Part shown: piece by piece, positions 30,301-57,429 of the stretch
How the letters are laid out: each line of letters starts with the position of its first letter
Position numbering within the stretch: the first letter of the stretch is position 1
Translations under genes and position numbers: made by a program
The notes under the pieces: model-generated
The model's database searches: none
Seen by the model: only the letters and a program-made list of their open reading frames with translations
Told to the model about the DNA's origin: nothing
Assembly (NCBI GenBank): GCA_051294905.1
Contig: CM119372.1
Coordinates: 4,714,001-4,778,000, forward strand
Length of the DNA: 64,000 nucleotides
Origin: Botryllus schlosseri
Lineage: Eukaryota
Reading direction: 5' to 3'

Positions 30301-33300
30301 TCGTTTCACAGCCTGCTCGAGCTCCGTCGTAGTATCGAGAAAGGTACGATCTTGGTTCCTGGCTCGCCAGAATCCTGAGTTTTGTTGTGTGTCAGTCTCA
30401 CTTTCACTCACTTTTCGCCGGTCTCCAGAATACTGTTATCCAGGGTTGTAACCAAGTCGCAAGGTTCCGAGTCGCGAGTCAATCTCACTTTTATAGTTTT
30501 GACTCGAGTCAAGATGAGTCGTGTTCAATTCAACACCGAGTCAAGTCCGAGTCCAAGACAGTACATAGCGGGCCGTTTACGAGTCGTCGTGTCGTGACTC
30601 GAGTCCAAGTCATTGTGTTCACTGCTCAGTTTTGAGTTTGACTCGAGTCGAGCTATTTTACGTATTTGAAAAAATGACTCTCGTCAAGTCGATAATCGCG
30701 AAAATTTTAAACCGATTTTGCAGGAGCGGTGATCTTGGACCTGGACAACGACAATCTGACCGACATCGCCAACACGGTGGTGGAACGTATGGTCGTGTCG
30801 GACCAGATTCGCGAGGAAGACCGCGGAAGCGTGCTGCGAGTCCTACTTTCTAAGCACAAGTGCGTGCCGTCTAACGGGTTTTTATGTTTAGACGAGATGA
30901 AATACCATAAAATGTTTAGCTGGGGTTCCTAACCTTTTTCACGCCGTGGCCCCCTTTGAAAAAAACAATGACCCCCCTATTTTTCGTTATTCTCATTGAA
31001 TGGCATATTCATATTGAAACGAACCCGGATATTTTCGGCTGGCAATCGTCAGCAACTAGTAGAGAATTGGAAACGACATTTTATATCCACAATTGTATCG
31101 CAAAAGATGACGTCCCAGGCGTGATATTTCCAGTGACCTATATTTTGTGATTGTTGATGTACAATGTTCTTGTCAATTCTCTACCTCAAAGGAGCCCTTC
31201 CAAGTTATATTAATTAACCGGTAGTTAGAAGGAAAATGTAATTATCATATAAGATAACACACGATGAACATGATAGGTGATTAAATAGTTATTACAGGGC
31301 AAACATTCGACTTTTTTTTACACTAAAAAACTTTTTGTCAAAATTTTGTCTTTTAAAGAACTCATGTTGTTGAGCCGCGCAATATTGCGTGGCAATTTAA
31401 AATTTCTTTTGTGACTTCTTGGTGATGAGGCTGGGAACCCCTGTTGTACAGAATATTACTCGTTGAGTATGTAATTTGGTGTACAATGGTGGCCTATTTC
31501 CGACAAAATAACACTCTGTTTATTGCTGCTGCTATAAAAAAGCCTGAATTCTATCTATTACACTGTTTTATTACCATTCTTGGCACTTGAAATCTTTATG
31601 GAAAAACTTACTCACTATTTGGACACATTGCATTCAATATCTATGCCTTTCGGTAAATGTGAAAGCGTCACGGTAGCTTGGCTGTTTTCGAAAGGCATCT
31701 TGCTGTAATATATAATTTCCCGTTGCAAAATTGCAGCTTACCACTTGAAGTGTTGGTCTCGCTGACGTTAGCTGAATGCAATGCAGTATTATGCGGATAG
31801 GTCATCGAGTTCACGTAACCTTTCTTGCTATGCGGTGATGCATAATAGCAAAACAATTCCAGCTGGTATAACATGATTTGGTCTTTTTAATCGTGGGCTG
31901 GCATGCCCGTGTGTGATCATCAGATGACTGATGTGCATATGCTTTTTATGAAATGTGTGCCTTACTCAATTGAATATTTCCACGGTGAAATGTCAAATGA
32001 ATCTCGCACCTCTGGCACATCGGTAAGTTTGGATTTATCACATGATTCCCCCGCAAAATGATGCGTTACTATGTTATAAACACGTATATAATATCTATCT
32101 AGTTCCGGTATAATTGAGTAATAAAATTTTGAACTTGATGCAATGTGAAATGAAATTTTTTCCAGGCGTCTGGCGGCCAGATCTGGGTAATTTTCAAAGG
32201 AATATGTTACGTTCATGATTTCCTTTTTTTTCGACTTGATGTTTCATAACGTTTGCTTTTACGTTTGTTAGGAGTAGTCTCGAATTTTGAGAAGTTATTG
32301 TTTGCGTTTAACCATTGCCGTGCTTGTAACAGTTGAATTTAGACGGATCTATTAAATATGTGCCGATTGGCAAATTATAGTGAAATTGTAGGTGTGGTAG
32401 TGTCAAATTCAGCCCCTCTTGTGTCTTCAAATCGGTTGATTAGTATGTGAACAGACATTTATGGTGTCAGACTATAATAGGATTCTGAAAACTGTCTGAA
32501 ATAACGATGTATAACAACCCCTCTATACAGTCTTGATAGGTGCATATGCATCGCTCGAGCTTCTTCACATTCTAAGTTTATGTGATAAATTTTCGAGTGC
32601 ATTTGTAGTATGGTGTTATTGGGATTTGCTAGCACACTGTCATTTGTCGGTTTTATGTTGTCATATTGCTTGTAAATCGTTTCAACAGCAATGAAAAAGC
32701 ATGTAAGCATACCAGTGATTACTGTTATGTTGGTCGAGACATTGTGTTCTGTTATCCGATTTTGATTACTATCGCTTGCTTGATGCCATCACATCATTAT
32801 CCGTAGAGCGCTGTTTGTTTTAACTGCTAGTTTGCATATGCGGTAGGTAGCTGTGTTTTTCACTCGCTTTTCTTGTGTTTGCGTGATATGACTGGGTCGT
32901 TTTGCGCATGTGTGCGCGTGAAATTGACCGTTGGCTCCTTGATGCGTTGAAGTATTCCGATAATGTGCCGTGGTTATGTATATGGTAATGACTTGGTATC
33001 CTAAGAATTTGACTGCGATTCACTCGGAATAGTGTATTCTTGGATTTTATATTTTGCAGTAAATCCTTGTGTTCTTTGTGTAGGCATCTCCCCGGCGAGA
33101 AAGGCCTGTCCTACACTTTATCTCAGGCCAGCTTCTCGAACCTGTTCAGTCCGAGCTCGACTAACCTGAACAAAGAGGACGACGTCGCCGTGCGGTTTAG
33201 CGTGAGCGCCGAGTCCACAGAAACCAGACTACCGCTGCTGGATGGCAATTCTTCTGACGTGGAGGTAATTCAATTTGTTCCACAATCAGCGGTAGGATAT

Positions 33301-36300
33301 GCCCTCCTTGTTTTGAACTGGGCGATATCAAGAGAGGTTTATTCATGCTCTTCTAGACCAGCGCTTCCCAACCTTTTCCAGTAGGCCGACACGACCCACA
33401 ATGACCAAACGAATTAGGTACTAGCGTAATAAAGCAAAGGGGATAGGCACTGATTTTTCAATCAGTAGATTATGCATATGTGTTGTGTATCTGCTGTAGT
33501 TCTGTGTTTTCTTTGTTAAGGCTGGCAGGAGTGTGTCCATGAGCCGAGTCGCCTCGACTGTCGCCGCTAAGGATTTGAAAATAATGAAGAAAATACCTCA
33601 GGACGCAGAGGCCAGCGCCGTGTTAGTGGGTGAGTCATGGCTTCGTTATTTTTTGGAATTCGCTCCGAGTTTCAATCATGTGATCACGCAGCGAACTGAT
33701 TTGTTTTGGCGCGTTGAGTTCATTCGGTGATCAATCTCAGGATATGCAAAATAGACTTTCACGGGCCGCTGCGTATGTGTTGCCTTGAAACGGAAGATCG
33801 AACCGAGCAATATGTAACTGGACTTACATTCATCTCAGCAGACGTTTAACGTCCAGAAATTGGGTTAAATCTGTCAGTGATACATGCTGTATGCTCAATA
33901 TTCGTGTTTGTTCAACTAAGAAATGGTCTCACCTACCCCTGGCATGTTATTATTCAATTTAATTAGCCCAAACAACTAGGTTTTCTCCCTCCGTATCCAT
34001 TACCCATATTTACGCTGCATGAGTTGTATTTAAATGCTCAATCTGCCTTCAGCCCTTCAGTCAAGGTTTGCTGTTTTCAAATTCATATTGGTAAGATATG
34101 AAGCTGAGGGTATAATTAATATATGTGCTGAGCTGAAATACAGGCATCTGTTTTATCACTTTGGTGGCTGATTTCATGCCGAGAAGATTATTCAAATTCC
34201 TTGTGATGGAGTATAGTATATTAATATATGTGCTTACAAACTTGCTCAACATACCTATCCTAATATAGTTCAATGTCGTATCAACTCCAAATTCACATTA
34301 CAATGCGTATAGAGGATTCACACTCTTGATCCTATAATATATCTTGATACTTGTGTAGGTTTTCGTGTGACTTTACTGCACCATAACCAAAAAGTTGAAA
34401 CTCGATTGTGATACAAACTGTATATGACACAAACTATCTAAGTTACGAAATAAAAGTAGACCACATTACATTATGATTCTGTCCACAATTGGAGCCTGAC
34501 CACGCTCTAATATGCCCGTTTTTAACTGACGACTCCCCTGGCCAGATGTGAACAATTGATTAATTCATGGGGTTGACGGTGAAATTTAAAATTTTTCCAA
34601 ATAATTTTTCATAATAAATTCAAAATTTTCAAACTCCTGTGCGTTCACATATACCAGTTAGGATCGAGCCAAATTTGGTGTACATCGTATTTTAGGCAAC
34701 CTAACAATTTAATCAGTGAAAACAGGTTATTTTGGAACAACACTAGTCCTCATAATTTATGCTATTCAGAATCGAATCACTAGGAGATTCGATTTTTCCC
34801 AGCCCTTGTCGCGATGAAGCACACTGTAATTTGTAAAGTAACCACTTTCGATCTGCTATTTTCAAGCATGCGGTGTTCCGACTAAATCCACGTCTTGAAA
34901 CTACTTGAGTTCTTCTCAGATCTCGATTGGCTCATTGCATTGCAGTTGCGTTGACTTCTATCTACTTTCGAGTAGAAGTTTACACCGTTACTGCAACAAC
35001 AAGACTACCTTGACCACTTATTTGCAGGATCGCTCGAGTATCTGGAGCAACCGACGTTGGCGTTTGTCCGTCTGGCTGCCGGCGTCGACTTGGACAATGT
35101 AGTCGCGCTGCCCATTCCCGTCCGGTTTATTTTCGTGTTGCTGGGTCCCACGTGCGACGATTTCGATTATCACGAAATCGGAAGGTCCATTTCCACGCTC
35201 ATGGCCGACGAGGTACGTACGGCTGATGATGGAACGAAAGATTTTGCTTGTTAAACGCTCTGCGTTACTTAACGTGTCGGCCTCTTCGTGTTTTTTGGAA
35301 ATTATGGCTTGCGTACTGGTGGTTCAAGCAAAGGAATTGGAACAGGACGTAGTGTATTTTTGTCCTTTACGTTTTCTGCAGCATATACGCCGACTCATGA
35401 TATACATACACACGATCTGTGCGTATGCATACCACGAGTGCATGATGTGCATATGCTGCTGGACAATAGGGGTCTTCAAAAATGACCTTTTTTCTCAAAT
35501 TGTACTGGCTATTTGATAAGATTGTTAAGTTACCTAATTTAAACCTACGCACCAAATTTGGTTCAATTCCAGCCAGTAGCCGCATTGCTACAGGAGAACA
35601 AAGTTTTCATTTATTATGTATCAAAATTTTCTGTTCGCCCCATGAAAGTGTTAGGCTGTCTATAAAAACGATATTCACCTAATTTGGCTCAATTCCAACC
35701 AGTGGAAGCAGAGTTATTGCAGTCAAAAAATTTGGATTATCAATAAAATAGTATTCACGGTGGCCAATTCTCTAACTATTTATTATAGGTGTGACCACCG
35801 TAAATACTATTTTATTCAAATCCAAAATATTTCGATAGCAATAATTCCGCTTCCACTGGTTGGAATTGAACCAAATTTGGTGAACATCGTTTCTATAGAC
35901 AACCTAACACTTTCACAGGGTGAACAGAAAATTTTGAAATTTTTGTTAATTTTTCGCGAATTCAGTAATTCCAATCCAATTTGGAAACAACTGTATAGAT
36001 GCAATTCTAATTCTAATGTAATTCAAAAAAGCTGAAAATTTTCTAGTTATCCAACTCCACCTTGAAGTAGTTTGGAACATTGCCACTTCTACTTGCAACT
36101 GAGTAGAAATTTACGGCATTACTTCGAATTGAGTAGCGATGCTGATTGCTGTTGTGTTGAAAAGTATGTTGGTATTGAAATCTACCTGAATGGTGACTGA
36201 CACTCGTCAGGGGTAACCGTCGGCAACTAGTAGAGATTTGGAAAGACCATTACGTACACCCTTGACGAATGTGTTTTCCAATTCTCTACTAGTTGCTGAC

Positions 36301-39300
36301 TATAACTATATAACTCAATTGTATATTGAAGTTGTGCACCTCCAAGAAGCCATTCAAACACGGACCGCTTTGACGCATCTGCTTTTTAGGAGTTCCACGT
36401 GGCCGCCTACCAGGCCGACAACAGGGGCGATCTGTTGCGCGCCATCAACGAGTTTCTGGACGACTCCATCGTGCTGCCCCCGGGACAGTTGGAGAACCCG
36501 GAGTTGCTGCGAAACATCAACCTCTACCAGGAGCATCTCGCGCAACGGAAGAAAAGGGCGCAGAAAGCCATCGAAGAGAAGAAAGAAGGTATGAGGACGA
36601 ATTCAGTGTTTCGTTTGAGATTTTTTGTGTGTTTTTCTTTGTATTCTACGGATCTTGTGCTATTTTATTGTGAACATCTTCGCCGGAAACGATCAAATTC
36701 GTCACTGTTGCTGCTCGAGTGGATGTAAATCCGTGAATATCTATTCACCTGCAAGTCAAGTCATTTTCAATGCACCATTGAGTCAAGTCCAAGTCACTGA
36801 GCATTAGGGTCAAGTCCGAGTAATAGTGTTGTGACTCGAGTCCGAGTCCAAGTCATTATGTTCACCGTTCGATCCGGTTCAGCCGCTGCTAGAGTGATAA
36901 AGAATGGCTCACATTCATAATATTGTCATTTTCCTCAGTCCCAACAGTTTCTGGTCCTATTTTCCAAGTATCAGGACTGATAGACGAAATACCGATCATG
37001 TGGTGACTTTACTATTCTTGAAATTACTGTGAAATGTCTGTCTTGGTTGTCCTAGTCTCGAGTCATATGACTTGGTTCGAGTCATGCGCAATGACTCGAG
37101 TACAAGCTGAGTCAATACAAAAATGACTCGAGTCAAGTCGAGTCACCAAAAAATCGTGACTCGAGTCGAGTCATTACAGCCCTGGTGCAAGTGGACCGAG
37201 ATGATATCAAACTGCGAAGTGTTCCATACTCTATTTTGTGCCTTCGGCTGGCCCCCCGCTTCTAATGTAGGTCTATCTTACGAAGTTGCATTATAGTGAG
37301 CAGGTTTGTTGTCTACGTAGACGGTATATACAGCTGCTTTGTTTTACCTTCAGAGCCAGAAGAGCCTCCTGAGAATCCGTTGCAAAGAACCAAAAAATGC
37401 TTCGGCGGCTTGATCCGGGACGTGAAGCGCCGGTATCCGCGGTACCTCAGCGACATCACGGACGCCTTCAACACGCAGTGCCTGGCCGCTTTTATCTTCA
37501 TATATTTCGCCGCCCTCTCGCCAGCCATCACGTTCGGTGGTCTGCTAGGTGCGTGGTTATCAACCTTTTGTCTTTTGTCTTGTTTGGTGATATCGAATGG
37601 TTCGCATTTATAAGATACTAATTTCCTCACTCTTAGCAGTTTCTGGCCGCATTTTCAAGTACCGGTACCTGTAGACGAAATCCCAGTAGTGTGGTGACTC
37701 TACTATTCTTCGAAATTACGATGAAATGTAGGTCTTGGCCGTCTGAATCTCGAGTCATATGACTTGGTTCGAGTCGTGCGCAATGGCTCGAGTCCAAGTC
37801 GAGTCAATATACAGATTGGCTCGAGTCGAGTCATTTCCGTATTTTTGGAAAATGACTCGAGTCAAGTCGAGTCATCAGGAAATCGTGACTCAAATCGAGT
37901 CATGACACGATTCATTTCAACCCTGAACTGTGTAGCTATGAATTTAATTCTAACTCCAAAATCTGATTTGGAAAAATCTGTGTAGCTATAATCCCAATTC
38001 TAATCTAATTTTTCAAAAGCTGAACATTTTCTAGTTGTCCGACTATGCCTCGGTATATTCCGCTTGCACGGCTTTGGGTGTCAACTCTGCATTTTGTGTT
38101 GCAGGAGAAAAGACTGGCGGCCTGATGGGTGTTTCGGAGATGGTTTTGAGCTGCTGCTTTTGCGGCTGTACTATGGCGTTGTTCTCCGGGCAGCCTTTAC
38201 TCATCGTGGGCGCTACGGGACCTTTGTTGGTTTTTGAGGAAGCGGTGTATGCGGTTAGTTAACTTGTCTTTTTAAGAGACGGCTCTGTTTCAAAATAATT
38301 TAGGAAATCGGTCTTTTCCAGAGACTTGATTAAGCTTTTTGCTGATCATATCACGTAATGCTCGCAAACTAGTCAAATGCTTGTGTTGAATGGTGGAAAA
38401 AGTACGGTTTCAGTTATTGTAATAGATAGGCAGTTTGTTTACATATATTTATGATATAATATTATAAGATGGGCATGGTATTCCGATTGCACTACTTTTG
38501 CATATTATGCCGCTGTGAATGATAATAATAATAGCTTGATATATGATCTGTGTGATATCAATTTTTTGAACACCATCGACAGATCATGAGCTGCCTATTA
38601 CTCATAAATGCTGCCCGCATATTCAGTAATGGCAGTTTATTTTTTAGTGTAGCACTATAGGTATGTACGGTATCTGTATTGAATAGTAATGGCTTCAAAT
38701 GTGATCTGTGCCAGCTTGAGCTATGAATACTACAGGAAATGAAACTTCTTGGATTTTTTTGACTTGTTACATAGGCAGCGATTTGCATTCCTCGTGATGC
38801 GACCATGTTAATAAATTCCATGCTGAAATTTTGGTCGCAATTTTCATATTTTGCGCCTTATTTCCAGTTCTGCCTTGCCAACGGCTTGCCATTTCTCGCG
38901 GTGCGGTTTTGGATCGGGATGTGGATCTGCATCATATCGATCGTGACCGTCGCGTTCGAAGGGTCCTTTTTGATCCGATTCGTGAGCCGGTTCACGCAGG
39001 AGATCTTCGCCGTCCTGATAGCGCTCATTTTCATCTTTGAGACTTTCAAAAAGCTTATTAAGGTGAGCGAAAACGGGCTTGGATATGCTATACCGGCGCC
39101 AATATACAAGAAGAGTGGCAGATGTACAATGCGTTGCAGTCTTACGGCGTCACATTTGCACGGAGCCGTAGTTTTTTGTCTTTTTAAATTATGTAAGAAT
39201 CAAAATTATCGCTACACAATTTATTTTGCCGAATTAGACTGGAATTATAATTATTGCTAGTTTTTTCAACGTTGGATTAGAATTGGAAGTACCAAATTCG

Positions 39301-42300
39301 TGAAATCTTTGAAATTTAATTAAGTCAGAGCTCTTCTAATGAGCATGAGTGTGGCAAATGCCTATAGCCAGAAATTAGATTAGAATAAAAATTCTAGCAT
39401 AGTGACATTTCACGAATTAGATTGCAGACATTTTGTTCTAATTACTTTAGTCGAGTGCTTTTCAACGTTTCTGAGCACCGTCCGCATTTTTTCCGCAAAA
39501 ATCTGGTTTTGCAGGTTTTCGAAGTATTTTCACACTGCAACATTTTGTTGGCGGACCCCGGACCCCAGTTTAAGAAATTATTTTGTGCGGTTAATAAACG
39601 GCCACAGATTGTGGTAGCTGACAAGAGTCTTGTGAATAAAGTGTATGTCGTTAGGTCTTCGCTACTGATCCACGGCCGTTACTACCCTGGTTTATATTGG
39701 TGACTTTCATGTCTGTAACGAGTTTTAACGTTTCACGTTACAGACGTATCAGCAGCATCCTCTCATGCTCACCTATTGCTTCGACGAGAATCTAACAGAC
39801 TACGGCAACGTAACCGCCAACCTCACCCAATCATTTGCGAACAGCACCTTGCCAGACAAAGACGGTCAGTATTGTAATGCTTTTTACTCTGGTGTTATAT
39901 TGTTCAATATAATTATATATTCATCGGAACTTGGGCAAACTACTGGAATTTCAAAATACGCAGCTAGAACTTTAACTACTCACTGATCAAAACTCACAAC
40001 GGTAACTGCTCAAAAAACCTGTAATTAGTTGACCGTTAAGCCTGATATTGATGTTGAAATAAATAGATTTCAAAAGAACTTTATATATCAACAATCGTAT
40101 CACCAAATCTGGTATTCATATTGAAATGAGCATAATTCAACGGAACTTTGTACATCAACAGTTGTATCACCAAATAAGGCATAAAAATTTGAATAATAGG
40201 ACGCGCAGATGACTTCAGCTCGATCAGCTGCATGTTATCCAATTGTATATTGAAGTTCTGTACCTCCAAGGGTCTCATAATCGTGACTATCTCATGTTTC
40301 TCCGACAGTGAACATGGACCAACCCAACACTGCGCTGCTTTCGACCATACTGATGTTCGGCACTTACATGATTGCGATGCAGTTGAGATCTTTCAAGTAA
40401 TTCGATGACTTTGGATTTGTGTTTGAGTTTGTAAAAGTATCTTTATTTTATGTCTATCAGGAATAGTAAATTTCTGCGTAGTTCCGTGAGGAGAACGATC
40501 GGAGATTTCGGAGTGCCGATCGCTATCGCAATCATGGTTCTTCTCGATTATTTAGTGAAGGAAACTTATACACAGGTTTGATTTTAAATTTTCTTTTTGC
40601 TACTCCGCGATTTGAATTGTGAGGCGACATTTTTTGTGCCATCCGAATTTTTTAATAATGCAGTCCACTATTGGTGCGAATATGTTGCTACGTGCGATGG
40701 AATATCAAAGATCGATCTATCCTGGTGAATGCTGAATTCTACTTTTAGCTCACGATTTTTTTTTCAATTGACACTTTTGACACACAAACGGAATTTATCG
40801 GCTGATATGATGAGTTGGCGTCCAATAGTAATGAAATTTTGACTGTTCACAGGAAATGTTTCTCGAATTGGTGCCGTGAATGGTGAAATGTTGTTGTGAA
40901 TGCATTTGACTCCTCATAAGAGGGCGTAAGAGTGACAGTGTTGCTAATCAGGTAGAGGTAATGCTATGAATTTCTATTCAATCATGCCATGCTCAAATAC
41001 TTGACATCCGAAAACTACTCGAAGTCCACGACAGGAATTTATGGCTACTTACCAGGGTTGTAACCAAGTCACTAGGTTTCAAGTCACAAGTCAATCTCAC
41101 TTTTATAGTCTTAACAGTTTCTGGGCCTATTTTCCAGGAATCACGACCGATAGACGAAATACCAATAATGAAGTGGTCACTTTACTGTTCTTCGAAGTTA
41201 CAATGAAATATCTGTCTTGGCCGTCCTAGTGTCGAGTCATATGACTTGGTTCGAGTCGTGCACAATGACTGGAGTACAAGCCGAGTCAATACACAGATTG
41301 ACTCGAATCGAGACATTTTACGCGTTTGAAAAAATGACTCAATCCAAGTCGAGTCACCAAAAAATCGCGACTCGAGTCATTACAACCCTGCTCAAAACTG
41401 ACGGATTTTTCATTTTTGCAGAAACTCAATATTCCTGACGGTTTTTCGCCGACCAACGCCTCCGCCCGGGGCTGGCTCATTGACCCGCTCGGCACGGAGA
41501 GCGACCCGATGCCGGTGTGGATGATATTCGCCTCGTGCCTGCCCGCTTTCCTCGTGTTCATTTTGATTTTCATGGAGTCGCACATCACCGAGTATGTTCA
41601 CGTAGATTGTTGCTGGGAAAATTTTCAGACTGTTCTTATTTGATTAGAATTAGAGTTATAGCTACTCAGTTTTTTTTTAAATTTGATCGCAGTTAAAGTT
41701 GCTGAATAGGAAAAAACACGTGTCCGACCGTCTTCTATTTTGCAGGTTAATCATCAGCAACAAAGACAGATGTCTGAAGAAAGGCACCGGCTTTCATCTC
41801 AACACTGTCGTGCTCGGGATCGTCAACGCCGTCGTTTCTGTCTTTGGCCTGCCTTGGGTCTGCGCCGCCACCATCAGATCTGTCACGCATACGAACAGGT
41901 TTCCGTCTTTTTCTTATTGTCGTGAAGTGGGTGTTGCGACTCGTGCTCCGATTACTTCAATACGGTAATTCTTAACCGTTGCCAACCTGGCTGACCCCAA
42001 ATTTCGGCTTGGTCACAAAAACTGCCGTCTACATCCCGTATGAATCTGACCGTACCGTGTAATCTGTAATAGTGGTCAAGCCTATTCAATTTCGTGTGCT
42101 CGCTGGTCTTAAATTCCAAATTCTATGTGTACAACGTCCTGAAAGTATCCCGACTAACTGCTAGAGATGGATGGGTCGTGTTTGTGGAGTTCGGAACAGA
42201 CCTGGATCTTTTTTCCGTCTCCAATGTCAGGATCGATCCAACTAATACTACTAGAACTGATACCACTGCTGATGCGTCTAGAAACACCTACAGCTTAACA

Positions 42301-45300
42301 GGATATGCCGATACTTAAAATTCCATTTGCGGTGTCAATAGATAGCTAGAATCTAGTTGTATCAAGTTGATTTGTCATTTGAAATTAGTGTGTTTGGTCA
42401 CGAAGGCTACCGGCTCTCCATTACCTACTAGTGTTGCAAAAATGTGTCGATTTGTTTCAACAGCCTGACCGTCATGAGTCAAACTCAAGCGCCCGGAGAG
42501 AGGCCAAAAATCGTGGCCACCAGAGAACAGAGGTTGACGTGTTTTGCCGTCAACGCTGTGCTAGGTACCGTCCTCTTGTGTGCTTGATGTAAATGTCTGC
42601 GTGATATGCGTTTGCGTTGAAGGTTTGTCGATCCTGATGGGCCCGCTACTGAGGAACATTCCCATCGCCGTTCTTTTCGGCATCTTTCTGTACATGGGCG
42701 TGGGTTCCTTGAACGGCGTGCAGATGGTGGACAGGATCAAGCTGTTGTTCATGCCTACGAAACACTATCCCGATTATAATTACGTCAGAATCGTGAGTAG
42801 AGGTTTTTGTGATCGGCTGATGTTGTACTGGCGGTGCTTGGGTCAGGTTGGTGACATTAATACAAGTCCTGAACAATTTTTGGTACGTATTCCATGTTGT
42901 GGTAGAGCTTTTACATCTGACTTATCCAGGTTTTTGAATGTCTGTCCAGCCTGTATCTGACCACATCATGGGTGGGAGTCGGTTGGGTTTGACTTAGGCC
43001 AGAGTGAGGCACTCGATGATATAAATTTAAAATGTACATAGAGTATCAATCTCGGGGTTTGGCTTCATGTACTGTACACGCAGTGGTGACCAAAGTTGTC
43101 AGCGTTGCTCCTTAAGTAGAAGAAATGTCACGAATTTCTACTAGGGTATAAGCAGGGGTAGAGATTATCAAGTAGACCTATGTAAAAAAAGTACCAAAGT
43201 CCCTAGAAACCTGAAACCGTTGTCATTAATTTCTACACTATTACAAGCCACGAGCCAAATTTGATATGCATCGTTTTTTAAGTCAAACTAACAATACTAT
43301 GGGGTAGGCTTCTAGCTAACAATTACGGTGATACGATTGTTGATATGCAACGTTCTTTCCAATTCTCTACCAGTTGCTGACGATTACCCCTGACGAGTGT
43401 CAGCCGAAAATATTCGGGTCCATTTCAATATGAATATAATATTCAATATTATGGGCGGCAGTAAAATTTGAACAGCCCTAGCGTGCACACTATACAGTCC
43501 TCTTCCGTAACTGCCTAACGTTACACGTGTCTGATTTTCGGTTTAAAGGTGAGACCAATCAAGATGCACGTCTTCACCATCGTCGAACTGCTCTGTCTGG
43601 CCGTGCTGTGGGTGGTCAAATCCACGGCCGCCTCAATCGCCTTCCCGTTCTTCCTGCTCATGACGGTGCCTGTGAGAACACTGCTGTTGCCCAGGTTTTT
43701 CTCCAAGAAAGAACTGTCGGAGGTAATTATTCGTGCAAGCCGTGCGTTAGGCTTGCGTGTGTGTTGTAGACTGTCGTCGTTGTGAATGGCGTGTTGATGA
43801 GCAAGGGATATTGCCGAGGGACAGACGGCGGTATCCGCGTCGGCGTTGGAGCCATCGACTGTACATGACTCGCCGTTTGCTTTTGTTTTTGTACGTTTTT
43901 TTGTATTTTGACGTTTTTTGGGGCTGCGGAAAGGTCGTTTTGTAACCTATGTCGGGCGTGGCGTGTCGTATGCTCTTATCGTGAGGATAGTCGTGCAAAT
44001 ATGACTTGGTATCTTGAGTGAGTTTTGGATACCGTGATTAAGGTTGGGTGCAATGATATTTTCGAGTGCAAAAAAAGCGCGCCCCTAAAAATTCAATCAA
44101 CAAGAATTATAGTTTTGATACTATCTTACACCGTGGTCGTATCACAGCAACCGAGACCTGTCGCAAAGCTACACACGTTAGCGGAAATGACATTTCTGTT
44201 GAGCTATCAAGCCATAGCATTGTCGCAAAGTGCGATGAAATAGGCGTGGTTGAAAAATGACCGAACAATCTTTCTGGCGGCGGGGAACTGTCTTTTTTTT
44301 TTGAGATCGCGTAAAAGGTACACATCTCAACTTTCCACGTTACAATAATAATTTTCTTTGTGGTTGCATAAAATGTAGCAGTAAAGATGATGCAAAGTAT
44401 TTTTTACCTACGACTGTGCAGAAATGTCGCTTCTAGTAACGCGAGTAGCTTTACGTTACATGTTTTATGTGCTGTAACACGAACTTCAAGTTTCAAGGCT
44501 TTTGCAGTGGAAGAAAGTATTCGAACCATAAGTCTCGCCGATAGTATGATTGAGTAATGTATTCATATTGAAATAAATTGTCAGCAACTAGTAGACAATT
44601 GAGAGGAACATTGCATGTCAATAACCGAATCACCAAAAAAATACAGTTGCTGATGTACAGTGTTCTTAATTCGCTGCCAGTTGCCAAACATATTGGGGCT
44701 TATTTCAGTAGGAATATATTCAATCGTATGCCTAAGTTCTTCGTCTCCAAGAGTCTCTACAGATAATAGAATTCTTATGGCAGGAGTCATGTAATGTGGT
44801 TTCATTACAATTAATTCTCGATTTGGGTCAGAGTCTTGTAGTCTGTGTGCCCAACCCTAATTGTGGATATCCCGAGAGGTTTTTTGCGTGTCCCGATTTC
44901 CTAGAATGCTGCGGCATGCCATATTTCTGACATCTTTTTTATCCGAGGTATTCGGTGGCCTGTGTTTGCTATGATTCCGAAACCAGCACGGTTTGTTTTG
45001 AGTCCCTTTCTCTGCCGTCTCTATGAAATACGTCTCGACGAGAATCGCATGCCGAAAGGTTTATGAAATATTCATAAAATTTCGTTCTCATTTTCTACGT
45101 TGCTGGAATCTAGGAACAGCTTTGACTGGCTGTCGTTCCGTTAGCTTCTATGGTGTCGCTCCACTATAAATGCTGTCCTTACTCGATGTATCATAGAGTT
45201 ATGATACGCTGAATCATGAATGGCTAGTTTCAGCATTGGTGGCATGGGATAACAATTTGTTCGAGACATGTTGAGGGTAAGAGGGTAATGACTAACGAGC

Positions 45301-46774: not shown

Positions 46775-47866
46775 CTACTCCGCAAAACGACCAGGATCAA
46801 ATTCCGATATGTCTATTGTGGCTTTGCCACTAACTATCAAATCTGCAAGGATTTTACCAGTCATTGGCGCATTCAAAATGCCCCAACATGAATGTCCCGC
46901 TGCCACAAATACCCCATCACAATCGGACACTCTTCCGATGATTGGCATACCATCCTCGGTCAGCGGAAGATAACATGCTTGCTCTACATTGACGGTGCCA
47001 CTTTTCAGAGAAGTAGACATTTCTGAGCAAAGATCTTTCAATGCTTTGCAGCATCCTTCACTGGGGTTTACCATTCCTGGTGGTTCTAGGTTTTCAGATC
47101 TCAAGGGATCTTGCACGATTCCACAAACAAACGCCTCTCCGTCAGGTCTTGGGTAGATATCTGCAGAGGATTCCCCGTATGAAATAAACACTGCGTCTGG
47201 AGTTAATGGCGTCTTTGGTTTCACTGTAATAGAGTGTGCTTTCTGACCATAGATTGATCGGGGTAGAGATGGAAACCACTGTCTTGCTATGCCTGTCCAG
47301 GGGCCCATCGCTAAAACTACGTTTTTTGTGCTAAGTTCTTTTCCTCCATTTATTGTTATTGTCTTCAATTTGCTCTTCGGGGTGTATTTTATATTAACGA
47401 CCTCAGTTTGAGTCATAAATTCGACTCCCATCTCCAAGCATACTTGTTGAAGTTTTCTGCAGAATTGGTAAGGGTGCAGCTGCGCGTTTGTGGTCACATC
47501 GCCGATTTTCGACGGGCGTTGTATGGTACTTCCGTCGAGCCAAGCGGGGAGTTTAGCGTGACAAGACTTGCTGTATGACGAACTTTTTTGCAAGGACACG
47601 GAATGGGTTGTTAGTCGGCGAAACCCATATTGATTTTCTCCGTCCAGCTCCTTCGCTAGGGCACAGTGCAGGTCGTAGCTTAGGATTGCGAGTTCGTTGA
47701 TCGACGTGCCCGAATTCCAATCTCGAGCTAAAAATCCGCCAGCTCTGCCTGAAGCGGCATTAGCTAGTTCGTTTTTTTCAAGGACGGTTGACCTAATGCC
47801 AGCTTTCGCAAGGTAATATGCCGTACAAGTCCCGATAATTCCACCGCCACAGATTATGACTTCCAT
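46775..47866 (-). CDS. Intronless FAD-dependent oxidoreductase, DAO family, TDA3/C1F5.03c-like (363 aa)
   Basis: Single ORF from the first in-frame ATG at 47866 to TAG at 46775. Rossmann motif VIICGGGIIG, plus ASGRAGGFLARDW, AQLHPYQF, VVLAMGPWTG, YPRPDGEAFVCG, QACYLPLTEDGMPIIG and AAGHSCWGILNAPMTG. Confidence 0.88.
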   Translation of the reverse strand: MEVIICGGGIIGTCTAYYLAKAGIRSTVLEKNELANAASGRAGGFLARDWNSGTSINELAILSYDLHCALAKELDGENQYGFRRLTTHSVSLQKSSSYSKSCHAKLPAWLDGSTIQRPSKIGDVTTNAQLHPYQFCRKLQQVCLEMGVEFMTQTEVVNIKYTPKSKLKTITINGGKELSTKNVVLAMGPWTGIARQWFPSLPRSIYGQKAHSITVKPKTPLTPDAVFISYGESSADIYPRPDGEAFVCGIVQDPLRSENLEPPGMVNPSEGCCKALKDLCSEMSTSLKSGTVNVEQACYLPLTEDGMPIIGRVSDCDGVFVAAGHSCWGILNAPMTGKILADLIVSGKATIDISEFDPGRFAE

Positions 47867-49099
47867 ATCGCTTGGTTTGCGTTCAGCTACTTGAAGCAAC
47901 CATATCCTGTCATACCAGCCGCGACGCTATAATATTTGATGTCACCGCAGCCAGCATCTGTTCTGTATTTGCAAAATGTCCATTATCGTATTTGATTTAG
48001 CGGGAAGCACCCAGATGTCAGTGCCGGGGAGAATATATTTGTTATACAAAGTATCGATGTATCACGCGTGTAGTCAATGATAGCCAATAGTTTCTGGTAA
48101 AAAATGCTTTCAATAAAAATCTGTGACTTGACTTAGCCATTAGGACATGGCCTTCATAGAGCCATCCGTTTTTTTTTTAAAGGTCAACTGCATCTCAAAA
48201 ATGACTTTGCCTTATTTCGTACATTATGTGGTTAGAAATATGAATAAAATAATGAAAATTGAAAATACCTTATAGTTTTCAAGTAATTTAAATTATAAAT
48301 CGAAAAGTCAAAAAACGGAAACGAAACCATTCAGCCATGAAATGACGTCATGTAACTGACACAGCAGAAGTCTTGATACCTGGTTTACCACTGTGATTCT
48401 GCCAGAAAATGCTTACGTCATAATTCCGAAATCGCTGAGTCATTGTTGTCGGAATGATTCACTTGAGCTAAGATCAAATATTATAACTGGAAAAACAATT
48501 TCGCGACAAACTTGGAGTGCAAACGAACTGAAACACACGAGTTTTATCAATAAATGACGCAAACGGTATCATCAATACAATATGTCATCGAAACTTGGAA
48601 GGAGTGCTTCATTTTACAACCGCCAGGTAGTACTTATGGCATCTAAATTTTCAGCCGTTACGTAATCTACGCAGGCGGACCTACTACGATTCTCGCCTGT
48701 AGCCGAAGCATCAGAGGTTAATTTGTGTTCCTTCCCCCATGTTTGACTGTTTCTTACGGCGTCAAGACGCCCGAAGAAAGACTCCACAAAAGATTATATG
48801 TGATATCGAGCAGAAAAAAAAAACAAATAATAACGTTTAACGAAGACAGCCTATCCCACACTGTTACATCGGCCAATTGGCTTTAGTCGTTGTTTGATTA
48901 AAATACCATAATAGGTAAATGCAACACCTTCTTGCCGGTTACCTACATCGCATTACACACTATGTGTCTTGAGCACATCAGAATATAAATGATTACGATT
49001 ATTGCGATTAACGTCATGTTCGTGTTTGGTATAGGTCGACTGTAATGCCGCAATTTATGAGTTATTCAATAAACAATAAAAACAAAAAAATGCAATAGC

Positions 49100-51952
49100 G
49101 TTGCTTCTGCTTCGGACATTTTATATATTCGCAAAACTATTTCATCGTATGGTTTTACGTAGCCTACTTTTTGAAGATCAAAACGCACGATTTTATAGTT
49201 TCAATCGACAATTAGGACACCCGAATTGTAACGGCGTGCCCTCTGCTTCGGATGTGTTACATATTGGGATAAGTATTAAATCATGATGTTAATGACAATA
49301 TCAAAAAGTTGGGAAATTGCGTACTTTTTTATGATCAAAATGCATGATTTTGCGTTAAATGCGACTTTTCGTCCAATTCGATTTTTGGGCAGTTTCAATC
49401 GACAATTAGAACGCCCAAAATGTAACGGCGTGCCCTCTGTTTCGGATATGTTATATATTTCGATAAGTATTACATCATGATATTAACGATAATATCAAAA
49501 AGTTGAGAAATTGTGTACTTTTTCAAGATCAAAATGCACGATTTTGCGTCAAATACGACTTTTCGTCCAATTCGATTTTCGGTCTATTTCAATCAACTAT
49601 CAGGACACCCTAAATGTAACGGCGTGCCCTCTGCTTCGGATATGGTATATATTTCGATAAGTATTAAATCATGGTATTAACGATAATATCAAAAAGTTGA
49701 GAAATTGTGTACTTTTTCAAGATCAAAATGCACGATTTTGCGTCAAATACGACTTTTCGTCCAATTCGATTTTCGGTCTATTTCAATCAACTATCAGGAC
49801 ACCCTAAATGTAACGGCGTGCCCTCTGCTTCGGATATGGTATATATTTCGATAAGTATTACATCATGGTATTAACGATAATATCAAAAAGTTGAGAAATT
49901 GCGTAATTTTTCAAGATCAAAATGCACGATTTTGCGTCAATTACTACTTTTCGTACAATTCGATTTTCGGTCTATTTCAATCAACGATTAGGACACCCTA
50001 AATGTAACGGCGTGCCCTCTGCTTCGGATATCGTATATATTTCGATAAGTATTACATCATAGTATTAACGATAATATCAAAAAGTTGGGAAATTGTGTAC
50101 TTTTTGAGGATCAAAATGCACAATTTTGCGTCAAATACGACTTTTCGTCCAATTCGATTTTTGGGCAGTTTCAATCGACAATTAGAACGCCCAAAATGTA
50201 ACAGCGTGCCCTCTGCTTCGGATATGGTATATATTTCGATAAGTATTACATCATGATATTAACGATAATATCAAAAAGTTGAGAAATTGCGTACTTTTTC
50301 AAGATCAAAATGCACGATTTTTCGTCAAATACGACTTTTCGTCCAATTCGATTTTCGGTCTATTTCAATCAACGATTAGGACACCCTAAATGTAACGGCG
50401 TGCCCTCTGCTTCGGATATGTTATATATTTCGATAAGTATTACATCATGATATTAACGATAATATCAAAAAGTTGAGAAATTGTGTACTTTTTCAAGATC
50501 AAAATGCACGATTTTGCGTCAAATACGACTTTTCGTCCAATTCGATTTTCGGTCTATTTCAATCAACTATCAGGACACCCTAAATGTAACGGCGTGCCCT
50601 CTGCTTCGGATATGGTATATATTTCGATAAGTATTAAATCATGGTATTAACGATAATATCAAAAAGTTGAGAAATTGTGTACTTTTTCAAGATCAAAATG
50701 CACGATTTTGCGTCAAATACGACTTTTCGTCCAATTCGATTTTCGGTCTATTTCAATCAACTATCAGGACACCCTAAATGTAACGGCGTGCCCTCTGCTT
50801 CGGATATGGTATATATTTCGATAAGTATTACATCATGGTATTAACGATAATATCAAAAAGTTGAGAAATTGCGTAATTTTTCAAGATCAAAATGCACGAT
50901 TTTGCGTCAATTACGACTTTTCGTACAATTCGATTTTCGGTCTATTTCAATCAACGATTAGGACACCCTAAATGTAACGGCGTGCCCTCTGCTTCGGATA
51001 TCGTATATATTTCGATAAGTATTACATCATAGTATTAACGATAATATCAAAAAGTTGAGAAATTGCGTACTTTTTCAAGATCAAAATGCACGATTTTGCG
51101 TCAAATACGACTTTTCGTCCAATTCGATTTTCGGTCTATTTCAATCAACGATTAGGACACCCTAAATGTAACGGCGTGCCCTCTGCTTCGGATATGGTAT
51201 ATATCTGGATAGGTATTACATCATGATATTAACGATAATATCAAAAAGTTGAGAAATTGCGTACTTTTTCAAGATCAAAATGCACGATTTTGCGTCAAAT
51301 ACGACTTTTCGTCCAATTCGATTTTCGGTCTATTTCAATCAACGATTAGGACACCCTAAATGTAACGGCGTGCCCTCTGCTTCGGATATGGTATATATCT
51401 GGATAGGTATTACATCATGATATTAACGATAATATCAAAGAGTTGAGAAATTGTGTACTTTTTCAAGATCAAAATGCACGATTTTGCGTCAATTACGACT
51501 TTTCGTCCAATTCGATTTTCGGTCTATTTCAATCAACGATTAGGACACCCTAAATGTAACGGCGTGCCGTCTGCTTCGGATATGGTATATATCTGGATAG
51601 GTATTACATCATGATTTTAACGATAATATCAAAAAGTTGAGAAATTGTGTAATTTTTCAAGATCAAAATGCACGATTTTGCGTCAATTACGACTTTTCGT
51701 ACAATTCGATTTTCGGTCTATTTCAATCAACGATTAGGACACCCTAAATGTAACGGCGTGCCCTCTGCTTCGGATATGGTATATATATTTCGATAAGTAT
51801 TACATCATAGTATTAACGATAATATCAAAAAGTTGAGAAATTGTGTACTTTTTGAGGATCAAAATGCACGATTTTGCGTCAAATACGACTTTTCGTCCAA
51901 TTCGATTTTCGGTCAGTTTCAATCGACAATTAGGACACTCAAAATGAAACGC
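49100..51952 (+). repeat. Tandem array of a 194-bp unit (~14.5 copies)
   Basis: Marker GGCGTGCC (one copy AGCGTGCC) recurs every 194 bp from 49233 to 51755 (14 copies). Confidence 0.95.
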
Positions 51953-52236
51953 AAAGCTTTGAGATATTAGACATTTTTGGTGTTGGTAATTGGTTGATCT
52001 TCAATATGTTCAGTCTTTGTTTGCTTGAGGTGTTCATGGTGTTTGTCAGCCACTATGGTCATTTACACAAGGCCATTTTTTCATATTTATTTCATATATA
52101 TTAACTGCCGATTTGTAGCACGGCTAGTATAGAATTTTTATAGAGCACCGCTTACACTGATGAGATGGCGAGGAGGGGCCTTCATAAACCTTCAACACTA
52201 AGGTAGGAATTCTTGAGTCAACCTCGGTAGCTAACG

Positions 52237-52516
52237 ACTATATTGGCTGTCACTTGAATTCACGATCAATGATTGGTATTTTGCGGCGTAGACACGAAGA
52301 TTATTAGGGGCCCTTGCGCCACAATTACGTTAGTTGATGAACCAGCTCGTGGTGTCATTTGAACTTGTGAACTATATGAAGAAGAAGCTGCAAAAATTAA
52401 CCAAGTGCGAGGTCGTTTCTTTTTCACGAAAATGTCCGATTAAGCAGCCAGATCTTGAGAGCTGCGGCGTTTGCGTTGTCGCGGATCGGGTTTGTTTCGG
52501 ACATTTTGCATTTTGA
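52237..52516 (+). pseudogene. Degraded Ulp1/C48-like cysteine protease fragment
   Basis: Reads IHDQ*LVFCGVDTK...ATITLVD (HW..VD..D-like, CAA TGA one change each from His-Trp), then after a frameshift CPIKQPDLESCGVCVV (Q-x5-C catalytic motif). Confidence 0.5.
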
Positions 52517-52836
52517 AGGAATGATATTTTTCGCAATGGCACTGAAAAATCAGGACTACAATTCAATATCAAAAGACTTTGGGTTTTCATTGGATTAATT
52601 GGACTGATATGAATGAATTCAAATAATTCGTTTTTTCTCTAAATACGTCCATCTCTAGAATCCTATATCTACATCGAGTATGCTTTACAAAATACACGTT
52701 TCGAAATTACATTTTCAATTTGCATATTAATCCGTCTGAAACTCATTGATTCGAGGGGAGCTGCTGACAAAACTTAGCGACGAAGAAAGCAGGACAGGAC
52801 ATAGCATGGTAAAACAGAAATTGACCAGGAATCGAA

Positions 52837-53975
52837 TTATCGTTAATATCATGATGTAATACTTATCGAAATATATAATATATCAGCAGCAGAGGGCACG
52901 CCGTTACATTTTGGGAGTCCTAATAGTTGATTGAAATAGACCGAAAATCGAATTGTACGAAAAGTCGTAATTGACGCAAAATCGTGCATTTTGATCTTGA
53001 AAAAGTACGCAATTTCTCAACTTTTTGATATTATCGTTAATATCATGATGTAATACTTATCGAAATATATAATATATCAGCAGCAGAGGGCACGCTGTTA
53101 CATTTTGGGAGTCCTAATAGTTGATTGAAATAGACCGAAAATCGAATTGGACGAAAAGTCGTAATTGACGCAAAATCGTGCATTTTGATCTTGAAAAAGT
53201 ACGCAATTTCTCAACTTTTTGATATTATCGTTAATATCTTGATGTAATACCTATCCAGATATATACCATATCCGAAGCAAAGGGCACGCCGTTACATTTA
53301 GGGTGTCCTAATCGTTGATTGAAATAGACCGAAAATCGAATTGGACGAAAAGTCGTATTTGACTCAAAATCGTGCATTTTGATCTTGAAAAAGTACACAA
53401 TTTCTCATATTTTTGATATTATCGTTAATATCATGATGTAATACCTATCCAGATATATACCATATCCGAAGCAGAGGGCACGCCGTTACATTTAGGGTGT
53501 CCTAATCGTTGATTGAAATAGACCGAAAATCGAATTGGACGAAAAGTCGTAATTGACGCAAAATCGTGCATTTTGATCTTAAAAAAGTACGCAATTTCTC
53601 AACTTTTTGATATTATCGTTAATATCTTGATGTAATACCTATCCAGATATATACCATATCCGAAGCAGAGGGCACGCCGTTACATTTTGGGTGTTTTAAT
53701 CGTTGATTGAAATAGACCGAAAATCGAATTGGACGAAAAGTCGTATTTGACGCAAAATTGTGCATTTTGATCCTCAAAAAGTACACAATTTCTCAACTTT
53801 TTTGATATTATCGATAATACCATAATGTAATACTATCCAGATATATAACATATTCAAAGCAGAGGGCACGCCGTTATATTTTAGGTGTCCTAATTGTCGA
53901 TCGAAACTGACCGAAAATCCAATTGGACGAAAAGTCGTAGTTGACGCAAAATCATGCGTTTTGATCTTAAAAAAG
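52837..53975 (-). repeat. Inverted tandem array of the same 194-bp unit (~6 copies)
   Basis: Marker GGGCACGC at 52894, 53088, 53282, 53476, 53670 and 53864. Confidence 0.95.
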
Positions 53976-54845
53976 TAGGCGTCGTAAAACCACGATGAAA
54001 TAGTTTTCCGAATATATAAAATGTTCGAAGCAGAACAAACGCCGTTGCTTTTTTGTTCTAACTGTTTATTGAATAATTCATAAAATACTGTATAACTGTC
54101 GACCTATACTAAACAAGAACATGACGTGAATCGCAATAATCGTAAGCATGTGTTTTCTGATGTGCTCACGACATAGTGTGCAATGCGATGCAGGTGATCG
54201 GCAGGAAGATGTTGCATTTACCTATTATGGCATTTTAATCAAAAACGACTTGAGCCAATTGGCCGATATAGCCTAACAGTGTTGGATAGGCTGTCTTCCT
54301 TAAATATTATTATTTTTACTTGTTTTCTCCTCGATATCACGTATAATCATTTGTAGAATCTGTTTCCGGGCCTCTCGCCGCCTCGAGAAATAGTCACACA
54401 TGGGGGAAGGAACACAAATTAACCTCTGAGTCTTCGGCTACAGGCGAGAATCGAAATAGGTCCGCCTGCGTAGATTACGTAACGACTGAGAATTTAGATG
54501 CCATAAGTACTACCTGGCGGTTGTAAAATGAAGCACTCCTTCAAGTTTCGATTATATATTGTATTGATCATACCGTTTGCGCCATTTATTGATAAAACTC
54601 GTGTGTTTCAGTTCGTTTGCACCCCAAATTTGTCGCGAAATTGTTTTTCCGGTTCTAATATTTGATTATAGCACAGGTGAATCATTTCGACAACAATGAC
54701 TCAGCGATATCTGAAATATGACGTAAGCATTTTCTGGCAGAATCACAGTGGTCCTGGTTTGCATAAGGTTATCCCTGTTGCTGTGGATTTGAGTATTTCA
54801 ATGTGATCATGAAAGCTGTTAAGAAGATGAGGAATGGAGGTAGAC

Positions 54846-55199
54846 ATGAGGAATGGAGGTAGACGTTATGTCGCGTATGACTGCTACAATACGCAATATG
54901 CGGTACTCAAAGTGTCCTTACATCGCTTTCACAAGCCATATGCCGTCAGCCGACCGGACGCCTATAGCTGATTAGCTGAACAGTGCGGAACACCGTGAAG
55001 ACCAAAATTGCGCACAGAATCATATTCATGCGCGGATCACTTCCAACCATCTTGCTTCAATGAAGTATCCGAGATACACAAGCTAGTTGACTACCGAACA
55101 CAGGCAACTATCGCATGCACTCCCACTCCCGTCCACACTTTATTTTCACGGAGGAATACCGGTACTCCTCTAAAGCTACGTACTGTCCGAAATCGGTAA
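54846..55199 (+). pseudogene. THAP zinc-finger remnant (N-terminus of Kolobok transposase)
   Basis: MRNGGRRYVAYDC...VSLHRF...S*LAEQCGTP*RPK...SCADHFQPSCF...PVHTLF, with two TGA where THAP has Trp and a GTAAGT donor at 55196. Confidence 0.75.
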
Positions 55200-56286
55200 G
55201 TGAAAATGTATTGAGTCAGCTAGTACTATAAAACTGTAACTAACCGTTTCTATTAGTATTGACTGTGGTAGTGACGAAAGTAGTTATTGTTTGCACTCAA
55301 GTATACATGTAGAATTAAGTACGGTACCGTATGTGCCTTAAAAAACTTTTGAAGTGGAAGTATTCTAAAATTAAGCCACTTCACTCATTGAATGAAGTAG
55401 TGGCATTAGTTACTGAAAAGGGAGTATGTAACCAGCTGACTGCATGACCTGATGGTTACATCGCTGACCTCATTTTATGCCAATATGGAATAGTTGTCTC
55501 GTGCACACCAAAGATTCCACTGACTGCACACAGGTGTGACGCCGAAAACCGCCTTGGCACACCAAAGATATTGCGCTAAACGTACCGGGATTCCAACCTG
55601 GCAGTTTTATGGACTCCGTGGATAATTGAAAAGGACGCGACTCGAGCCAAAACTATAGAAGTGAGATGACTTGTGACTCGGAAATTTGCCACTTGGCTAC
55701 AACCCTGATAAAATCATAGACTGATGAAGCTGTAGCCTATGAGTCAGGAAGCCTACTTATCATGTAAGCAGCAAAAGCAACACGATAATACCGATGATCC
55801 ATTACTATATCGTAATCTATGTCCCTCTCAAGATGTTGGCAGCTCAGCGGAGATGAGAAAGTACCAGTATCACCATAACTGTCGTAAAGTACTCTGTTAA
55901 CTGTTCAGAACAACCCTTATAAGATTTCACCATATTCACAAGCCATACGCATCATTGTAGGATGCAGTTTGCAATCCTTTATTTGATGATACTTGAGAAG
56001 GAATACTGCCTTCAATCTGACTGTGTTATAACACCTTGTGATATTTTTTTGCCTTCTCTAGATTACTGCAATGAAGAAGTCAATGCACTCGTCAAAACAC
56101 GACCAGGAACGGCAGAGTTCATCAATTTTATTTGAGTAGCGGCATCGTCAAAATTAGCTCAGATGATGATATTGCTGGACACAAAACCCGATATGTTTCT
56201 CTTCCTGATACAGTAGCAGTGTTGATGGATTAGTTTGTTGCATGTACTATTTTCAATAAAACTATTTTCATGCGCAATGAAGCATT

Positions 56287-56691
56287 TCAAAATTGAAATC
56301 CTTTGAAACTACTGGATGTGACTTTTGATCGGATGGCAGTAACGACATGCGCAGGCAGGATTTTCCGTGTTGTTTTCTGCAGAATCCCCATAGCAATCGG
56401 ACGAAATTCCTGTGCAGTGTTTCTCAGCTTCCTGAAAAGTGTAGTGTTAGGAAATTACTTGGCAACGGACTCGCCGTTTCATCTTAATGAGGCTCATTCA
56501 CTCATGCATCAAACTAGATGTTATAATTCTGTGGCCATAATCCTGTTCTTATCTATAGTAAGACATCTTCAATGCATCACCATCCCAACAAGCTGATTGA
56601 AATCATGGTAATGCTGTGATTCACTCTTATTCTGTCAGCACAAACTCTCCCTGATAGTTGGCATTTAAGCTGGCAACCTCCATATTAACAC
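56287..56691 (-). pseudogene. KolX-like (P2X7 C-terminal ballast-like Cys domain) remnant
   Basis: Minus strand with stops and frameshifts: C*YGGCQL/MPTIRESLC*Q, ITALP*FQSACW, then KLRNTA/RNFVRLLWG/ILQKTTRKILPAHVVTAIRSKVTSSSFKGFQF*. Confidence 0.7.
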
Positions 56692-57429
56692 CTGTGATTG
56701 ATTGTAGCAAGATTCCTAATTGAAACGAAGTAATCCACCAAATTATACATAGGCCGCTACCATACTGCATTTCATTTAGCTTTTACGCTGATCACACTAC
56801 AGATTACCAACCGACCCATCATACGAAGCTGATAGGGGTTCCACTGATGTGGGATCGAGCGAATCACCACCTGAAGCGCGTCCGCATTTCATACTTACAT
56901 TCAAGTACTCAGATTCAGTTTTAACACCATACAAGCGAGTCCTTCGCCATAACTAACTCAAATATTCGCCCAGCGTCTTGGCGAACACACAATCACACAT
57001 ATCCCCTGTGGTGAGAATAGAGATGTCATGTACTTGACGTCACAATGCACATTCTGTTTTCTCTGTAAACATGCCAATATTGGGACTTTCAGTCAAAATT
57101 ACGGCAATTTCCGATTGAGTAGAAACACGGAAAGTCGGTAATTTAGGTATAAAATAAAGTTCTGAACATGATTCCGCAAAGTTGTCTGTAGAGATGCAGT
57201 TGACCTTTAAATCTGGATGTACTTCAGAGGCCAATGGTTTGGTGACTCCTTGTATTCAGCAAAGCCACTCAACTATGACTGTGGTTTTGAGTATTGAGTA
57301 AACAAGGTATGTTTGCGAATGGACAAGAAAGAACCATAAGTAATAGATCAAGCGGGCGGTGGCCTAATTCGAGGTACATTTAGCAATTACTTGAAACTTA
57401 GTCGTCGAGGTCGTCATTCTTTCCATATC

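Follow-up and report, generated by a model that had tools for sequence, protein, structure and literature searches.

The 64,000-nucleotide stretch of the Botryllus schlosseri assembly GCA_051294905.1 analysed here (contig CM119372.1, positions 4,714,001 to 4,778,000 of the forward strand; hereafter the window, with coordinates counted from its first letter) contains a foldback transposable element of 6,366 bp at 48387-54752, made up of inverted arms, two arrays of a 194-bp tandem repeat and a core. This element is a multi-copy, gene-less foldback lying in an older Kolobok-like element, and we consider it probable that it derives by internal deletion from an element of Mutator type (Rehavkus-like) with an Ulp1 protease domain at the end of its transposase. 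The foldback itself had been described in an original prediction from the letters of the window; the candidate protease relic and the surrounding host element are additions to that description.

The tips of the element are identical at 36 of 36 bases in inverted orientation, and CCTGGTTT flanks both ends as an 8-bp target-site duplication. When 11 symmetric boundary offsets were tried, the duplication was longest at offset 0 (8 bp), shrank to nested matches of 6, 4 and 2 bp at offsets -1 to -3, and was absent at the other seven; with up to 3 mismatches allowed, the window contains two occurrences of the terminal 19-mer, where 0.01 would be expected by chance. The non-repeat domain of each arm measures ~710 bp, and identity between the arms is 92.3% over the outer 220 bp (48387-48606), 92.4% at 48423-48700 and 86.0% at 48701-48950. 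Across 48387-49199, the alignment with the right arm is 89.5% identical (694 of 775 pairs, 81 positions differing) and contains 43 gap columns; the total arm lengths are 1.9 and 3.6 kb. These measurements confirm what had been predicted, namely perfect 36-bp termini, inverted arms of ~700 bp that are ~90% identical over the outer 220 bp, ~14.5 units on the left and ~6 inverted units on the right, a unique core of ~880 bp and an exact target duplication. With 1.9 kb of complementary arm, a single strand could plausibly fold back on itself; extrusion of a cruciform from duplex DNA is unlikely because the spacer is 884 bp long. The features of the nested pair are as follows.

48177-48378, plus strand: left end of the host element, with TTAA at 48177-48180 followed by a 16-bp terminal repeat
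48379-48386: left target-site duplication, CCTGGTTT (boundary comparison; present as a single copy in a contig of public run X7 that joins left and right flank)
48387-48422, plus strand: left 36-bp perfect tip (end comparison; contigs of public run X5 with unlike sequence before 48387)
48387-49099, plus strand: left non-repeat arm domain, ~710 bp (arm alignment)
49100-51951, plus strand: left 194-bp array, a degenerate 136-bp outer unit and then 14.2 copies from 49199
51952-52835: unrepeated core, 884 bp, without an intact gene
52235-52612, plus strand: candidate decayed Ulp1/C48 relic (ESM Atlas and a motif spotted by eye)
52836-54040, minus strand: right 194-bp array, inverted, 5.9 copies (52836-53977) and a degenerate 171-bp outer unit
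54041-54752, minus strand: right non-repeat arm domain, including the 36-bp tip at 54717-54752
54753-54760: right copy of the target-site duplication
54761-57210, plus strand: remainder of the host element, with the inverted 16-bp repeat ending at 57206 and TTAA at 57207-57210

The foldback is inserted in an older Kolobok-like element. TTAA-AGGTCAACTGCATC stands at 48177 and an inverted copy at 57193-57210 (two matches were found in 1 of 100 shuffles), which delimits a host element at 48181-57206 with 16-bp perfect terminal repeats that start with AGG and with TTAA on both sides. Kolobok elements are marked by a TTAA duplication, AG/AGG (RR) termini and a THAP domain (PMC6004289), and their transposase combines THAP, H2CH and DDE. 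The host resembles them in its TTAA duplication, its AG/AGG termini, its short terminal repeats and a weak THAP-like relic at ~54870-55064, 110 bp to the right of the insertion, for which the Pfam match (E 0.01, 17 bits) is below the cut-off of 23.9. It differs from them in its decayed state, with a length of 2,652 bp once the foldback insert is subtracted, and no DDE domain was found in it, six frames of 55400-57206 giving no family. An exact 19-bp tandem duplication lies at the start of the THAP relic (54827-54864).

Contigs of four public sequencing runs (X1, X5, X7 and X9) were aligned to 47300-49190; the comparison covers contigs only and, as listed, 24 of 148 loose ends, 40 of 171 variants and 32 of 2,302 pieces, and X1, which is possibly the source sample, was not counted as independent. 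At least seven X5 contigs carry unlike sequence before 48387 (consensus agreement 0.45) and one X7 contig begins exactly at 48387; the terminus is therefore fixed, and other insertion sites exist. Other flanks at the terminus are also found among the X1 contigs listed. One X7 contig runs from 48386 directly into the 30 right-flank letters shown, giving a target with a single CCTGGTTT, and it mismatches the window at 21 of 208 letters. Given these mismatches and a flank that is itself repetitive, we take this contig to be more probably a further copy of the host element than the present locus without its insert, and we reject it as proof of an insertion polymorphism here. The unlike flanks at the terminus, together with a target that carries one CCTGGTTT, establish the foldback element as a real, multi-copy insertion, and the flanks in the X5 and X1 contigs bear out the expectation of a non-autonomous element with other copies. 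In all four runs the left 200 bp of the host are far deeper than the foldback arm, and the host therefore belongs to a very abundant family. The X5 contig of left type is ~14 times deeper than the contig of a neighbouring gene (1,269 compared with 90), a rough hint given that depth is not copy number, and we do not read it as such.

The same contigs show how the arms are composed in other copies. Over 48713-48922, X7 and X9 each contain a contig that departs from the left arm at 0-1 positions and another with 25-26 differences and 6 gaps, while the right arm of the window has 27 substitutions relative to the left; the left and right arms are two distinct fixed types that are present in other samples. 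The depths of the two inner contigs sum to that of the single outer-arm contig (24.2 + 16.4 compared with 39.3 in X7; 9.9 + 9.5 compared with 19.1 in X9), which suggests that both arms of other copies share one outer sequence and are ~13% apart in their inner non-repeat part. Among the arm variants listed, 19 of 25 positions show the right-arm letter of the window, as do 12 of the 15 in the outer arm; since these right-arm letters are near-fixed in X5, the left outer arm of the window carries some private changes. The arm contigs of X7 and X9 (organisms B and C) are near-identical, with no cover of the neighbouring gene shown; this pattern is most simply read as host DNA of low coverage from which repeats alone assemble, and it is not evidence of horizontal transfer. 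A search of metagenome contigs with the terminal 26-mer gave 0 matches.

The arrays carry a record of their own. Tandem Repeats Finder reports 14.2 copies of the 194-bp unit (GC content 34.5%) at 49199-51951 and 5.9 copies on the opposite strand at 52836-53977, both as assembled; the arrays are mutually inverted, and their long pairings are 90-96% complementary. The outermost unit of each is degenerate (136 bp on the left, 171 bp on the right), and each of these is the closest match of the other. In the left array, sequences 5 units apart (49441 and 50411) match exactly over 504 bp, and at that offset a run of 670 bp shows no more than 2 mismatches, a sign of recent multi-unit duplication or of assembly error. 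Mean distance between units is 4.7% within the left array (66 pairs), 7.0% within the right (10 pairs) and 6.2% between left and right (60 pairs), with a minimum of 1.5%; right units R03 and R04 are nearest to left unit L12 (1.5% and 2.1%), and in a tree of the units the left and right labels are unclustered (5 changes, compared with a shuffled mean of 5.4). Units are thus closer across the arms (6.2% apart) than is the adjoining non-repeat arm (14% apart, 48701-48950). Exchange between the arrays would be the simplest reading of this mixing, although the comparison is drawn from one element copy, in which exchange within the element and exchange between copies are not separable. The element had been predicted to be generating satellite DNA; amplification of the repeat is seen as local expansion inside one copy only, the longest array observed having 14.2 units. 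The unit showed no likeness to the outer arm (score 24, compared with a shuffled mean of 23.8), and a search for likeness between the core and the outer arm found none.

We found no intact gene in the core, either among its open reading frames or in six frames. It does contain a 60-codon frame at 52334-52513 (open stretch to 52516), with in-frame stops both upstream and downstream, that carries a Gln codon at 52445 and a Cys codon at 52463, six codons apart; 64 codons upstream of the latter, across two stops, the frame reads N-D-W-Y-F, at a position where His-Trp stands in C48 proteases. The Gln-Cys and (His)-Cys spacings fit the Ulp1/C48 active site, with the His changed. In the ESM Atlas the 60-codon frame scored 0.95, a value that by the tool's own figures shuffled proteins attain once in 100, and 27 of its 30 matches fall in the Peptidase_C48 set; there were 178-190 shared features, a recognition value of 2961 and agreement among 10 of the 10 best family matches, and the top three clusters carry Peptidase_C48 in 65%, 15% and 25% of their members. 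The core thus likely holds a decayed fragment of an Ulp1/C48 protease, ~60-120 codons long. A fold search with a poor single-sequence model (predicted local distance difference test value of 51) gave no match at E ≤ 0.001, which is no evidence either way.

A likely Ulp1 relic combined with an 8-bp duplication leads us to favour a Mutator-type parent over P or Galileo. Target-site duplications of Mutator-like elements (MULEs) are 8-11 bp long (PMC6446971), and Ulp1 has been reported from Mutators of hydra, lancelet and plants (PMC2836005); the domain is optional or accessory in MULE/MuDR and common to Ginger1 and others. The element shares with MULE/MuDR its 8-bp duplication (at one copy) and inverted repeats of hundreds of bases, and with Tetris-type elements its modular arms of an outer non-repeat domain and tandem repeats, its 8-bp duplication (the type has 8-10 bp), its gene-less middle and its other copies. 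It had been predicted to be a non-autonomous Foldback-like element of a possibly undescribed family, such elements being typical of the Mutator and P superfamilies; the first part stands, as a non-autonomous foldback, and of the two superfamilies the 8-bp duplication and the likely Ulp1 relic favour Mutator, while Galileo of the P superfamily has a 7-bp duplication and an internal THAP transposase (PMC3573991) and was rejected, the THAP relic here lying in the host. We also rejected Ginger1 on duplication and termini, as it needs a 4-bp CCGG/CCGT duplication, TGTNR ends and terminal inverted repeats (TIRs) of 40-270 bp (PMC2836005), and a Transib/RAG-type end at CACTGTG (5-bp duplication), for which offset +2 yields no duplication. 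The element is therefore filed as a foldback-structured, non-autonomous element that is likely a member of the Mutator superfamily; we did not file it under Rehavkus because the 9-bp duplication listed for that family was not found.

In the explanation that we favour, a transposase from an intact relative would bind both tips, excise the element and reinsert it by way of a staggered cut of 8 bases. Most of the gene, its catalytic region included, may have been lost in a large internal deletion, with a decayed 3′ end surviving in the core. The 194-bp subterminal unit would have grown by unequal exchange or slippage, to 14 units on the left, where one multi-unit duplication took place, and 6 on the right; exchange or conversion between the arrays would keep left and right units alike while the adjoining non-repeat arm drifted apart. 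The repeats may also act as extra transposase-binding sites, as has been proposed in print for other elements.

A number of results weigh against this account. The relic was recognised by one language-model search and a motif spotted by eye. Pfam gave one match among 8 core open reading frames (E 0.38, rejected) and no family in 7 read-through core frames; a word-indexed homolog search returned 42 candidates, none at E ≤ 10; phmmer found 0 matches at E ≤ 0.001 among 1.84 billion proteins; a PDB sequence search gave one match (E 0.78, rejected); viral contigs searched with the core frame provided none in support; and the upstream 39-residue frame scored 0.79 in the ESM Atlas with no family. Pfam detected no DDE transposase in six core frames, and no parent element was found. 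Rehavkus has a 9-bp duplication and a PHD finger, whereas the copy here has 8 bp and no PHD match in Pfam in any core frame, the gene being mostly deleted. The complete target duplication was observed at one copy only, the X7 contig with an empty target departs from the window as described above, strong support was obtained for only 1 of the 17 inner branches of the unit tree, and 8-bp duplications are also made by Zisupton elements (PMC12730594).

An alternative scenario, which we regard as unlikely, is that the C48-like piece is a captured host fragment or a chance likeness, and that some other transposase making 8-bp duplications (hAT, P, Merlin or a Mutator lacking Ulp1) moves the element, which would then be an unclassified foldback. 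Every alignment-based search of the core was indeed negative; however, the Atlas score, the family agreement and the feature count all lie within the tool's range for true members, and the residue spacings agree with those of a C48 active site. Host fragments are frequent in non-autonomous derivatives of MULEs (PMC5225508), and hAT usually makes duplications of 8 bp (PMC12730594); for P, the 7-bp duplication of Galileo (PMC3573991) argues the other way.

It is more doubtful still that the foldback is a derivative of a Zisupton (KDZ) element. Zisupton proteins, which are present in tunicates, include a C48 SUMO-protease domain, but the terminal repeats of these elements are short, compared with arms of 1.9 and 3.6 kb here, and no Zisupton core motif was detected in six core frames. 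Homologs are found in lancelets, sea stars and mussels (PMC9297572), and the 8-bp duplication is shared; arms that extend over hundreds of bases and bear subterminal arrays have, however, been described for Mutator-type elements. Should the 8-bp duplication and C48 after all point to a Zisupton-type parent, which we hold to be improbable, a foldback with satellite-bearing arms would have arisen in another superfamily, and its arms would record an exchange that keeps tips and arrays alike with a fixed zone of left/right divergence between them. Finally, the inverted structure or the arrays could be an assembly artefact, as the 504-bp exact and 670-bp near-exact matches could come from mis-assembly and no contig of the public runs spans the whole stretch, but this is very improbable given that the arms differ at 81 positions and 43 gap columns, that both arm types are separate contigs in independent runs, and that an exact 8-bp duplication frames the element inside a host with intact ends and TTAA sites; a wrong number of units would by itself leave the element unaffected.

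Elsewhere in the window, an intronless FAD-dependent oxidoreductase lies at 46775-47866 on the minus strand (Pfam DAO, E 2e-49, with TDA3-like names among its relatives). Its start is ~315 bp from the left end of the host element, so that the nested pair stands directly upstream; its best named relatives are ascidian (Styela clava 57%, Phallusia 46%, Clavelina 47%, Ciona 44-48%), followed by algal, bacterial and fungal proteins at ~40% identity. Exons of an SLC4 bicarbonate/anion exchanger occupy ~33000-43000 on the plus strand (Pfam HCO3_cotransp in both of the two exons tested), and an exon with a WW domain lies at 3607-3978 on the plus strand (Pfam E 3e-08). The exchanger exons and the oxidoreductase mark the window as animal DNA, and the relatives of the oxidoreductase point to a likely ascidian host. 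Self-BLAST revealed a family resembling miniature inverted-repeat transposable elements, 450-650 bp long with internal inverted repeats and 82-89% identical, at 12925-13548, 28248-28751, 29471-30137 and 35463-35954. A dispersed family with degenerate 39-43-bp tandem units occurs in both orientations at 3297-3591, 10047-10440, 16015-16494, 25698-26272, 35922-36056 and 37926-38044.

A foldback element of Ciona has been described in the older literature, as have the TU elements of sea urchins. Our literature search on foldback transposons of ascidians, Ciona and tunicates returned no matching paper, which in view of the older Ciona element does not imply that such elements are unpublished, and the available portion of PMC13359780 makes no mention of Ulp1 or C48.

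The architecture of the Botryllus element has counterparts among described systems. Tetris of Drosophila virilis (PMC4079207) has an outer non-repeat domain of up to 866 bp (here ~710 bp) and variable arrays of ~220-bp AT-rich units (here 194 bp, 34.5% GC), and it shares the gene-less middle, duplications of 8-9 bp and a unit number altered by duplication; it differs in having an inner TIR domain, and neither a coding relic nor a transposase has been reported for it. Tetris has seeded arrays of up to 66 copies, compared with 14.2 units in the longest array here. Rehavkus, a MULE/MuDR family, likewise bears subterminal tandem repeats in long inverted termini, and in Tribolium one unit has expanded to an array of 80.5 kb (bioRxiv 10.1101/2024.12.02.626372); its 9-bp duplications, PHD finger and arthropod or annelid hosts (PMC6446971) set it apart from the element of this ascidian. 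Animal Mutators with a C-terminal Ulp1 domain, from hydra and lancelet (PMC2836005), are matched by an Ulp1/C48-like piece where the end of the transposase gene would lie, although here it is a decayed candidate fragment and no DDE domain was found in the element. Muta1, a type-2 foldback MULE that is active in Aedes aegypti and has many non-autonomous derivatives, is alike in its 8/9-bp duplications and subterminal tandem repeats and unlike in its 145-bp TIRs with 12-bp repeats and its intact transposase (PMC5225508); Tm1 has similar composite TIRs (PMC3169594).

The Repbase rule assigns an element to a family when its terminal positions 1-11 align with that family (PMC4455052). With an architecture already described for Tetris and Rehavkus in flies and beetles, the Botryllus element may be a new sequence family of a known kind, perhaps unnamed. 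It does not overturn current views. As a clean example from a chordate, it shows a foldback carrying and expanding a repeat of satellite length, a known route to new satellite DNA, and its mixed array units beside a diverged non-repeat arm could be used to test homogenisation of inverted arrays. The likely protease relic, moreover, offers a handle on the superfamily that Tetris lacks.

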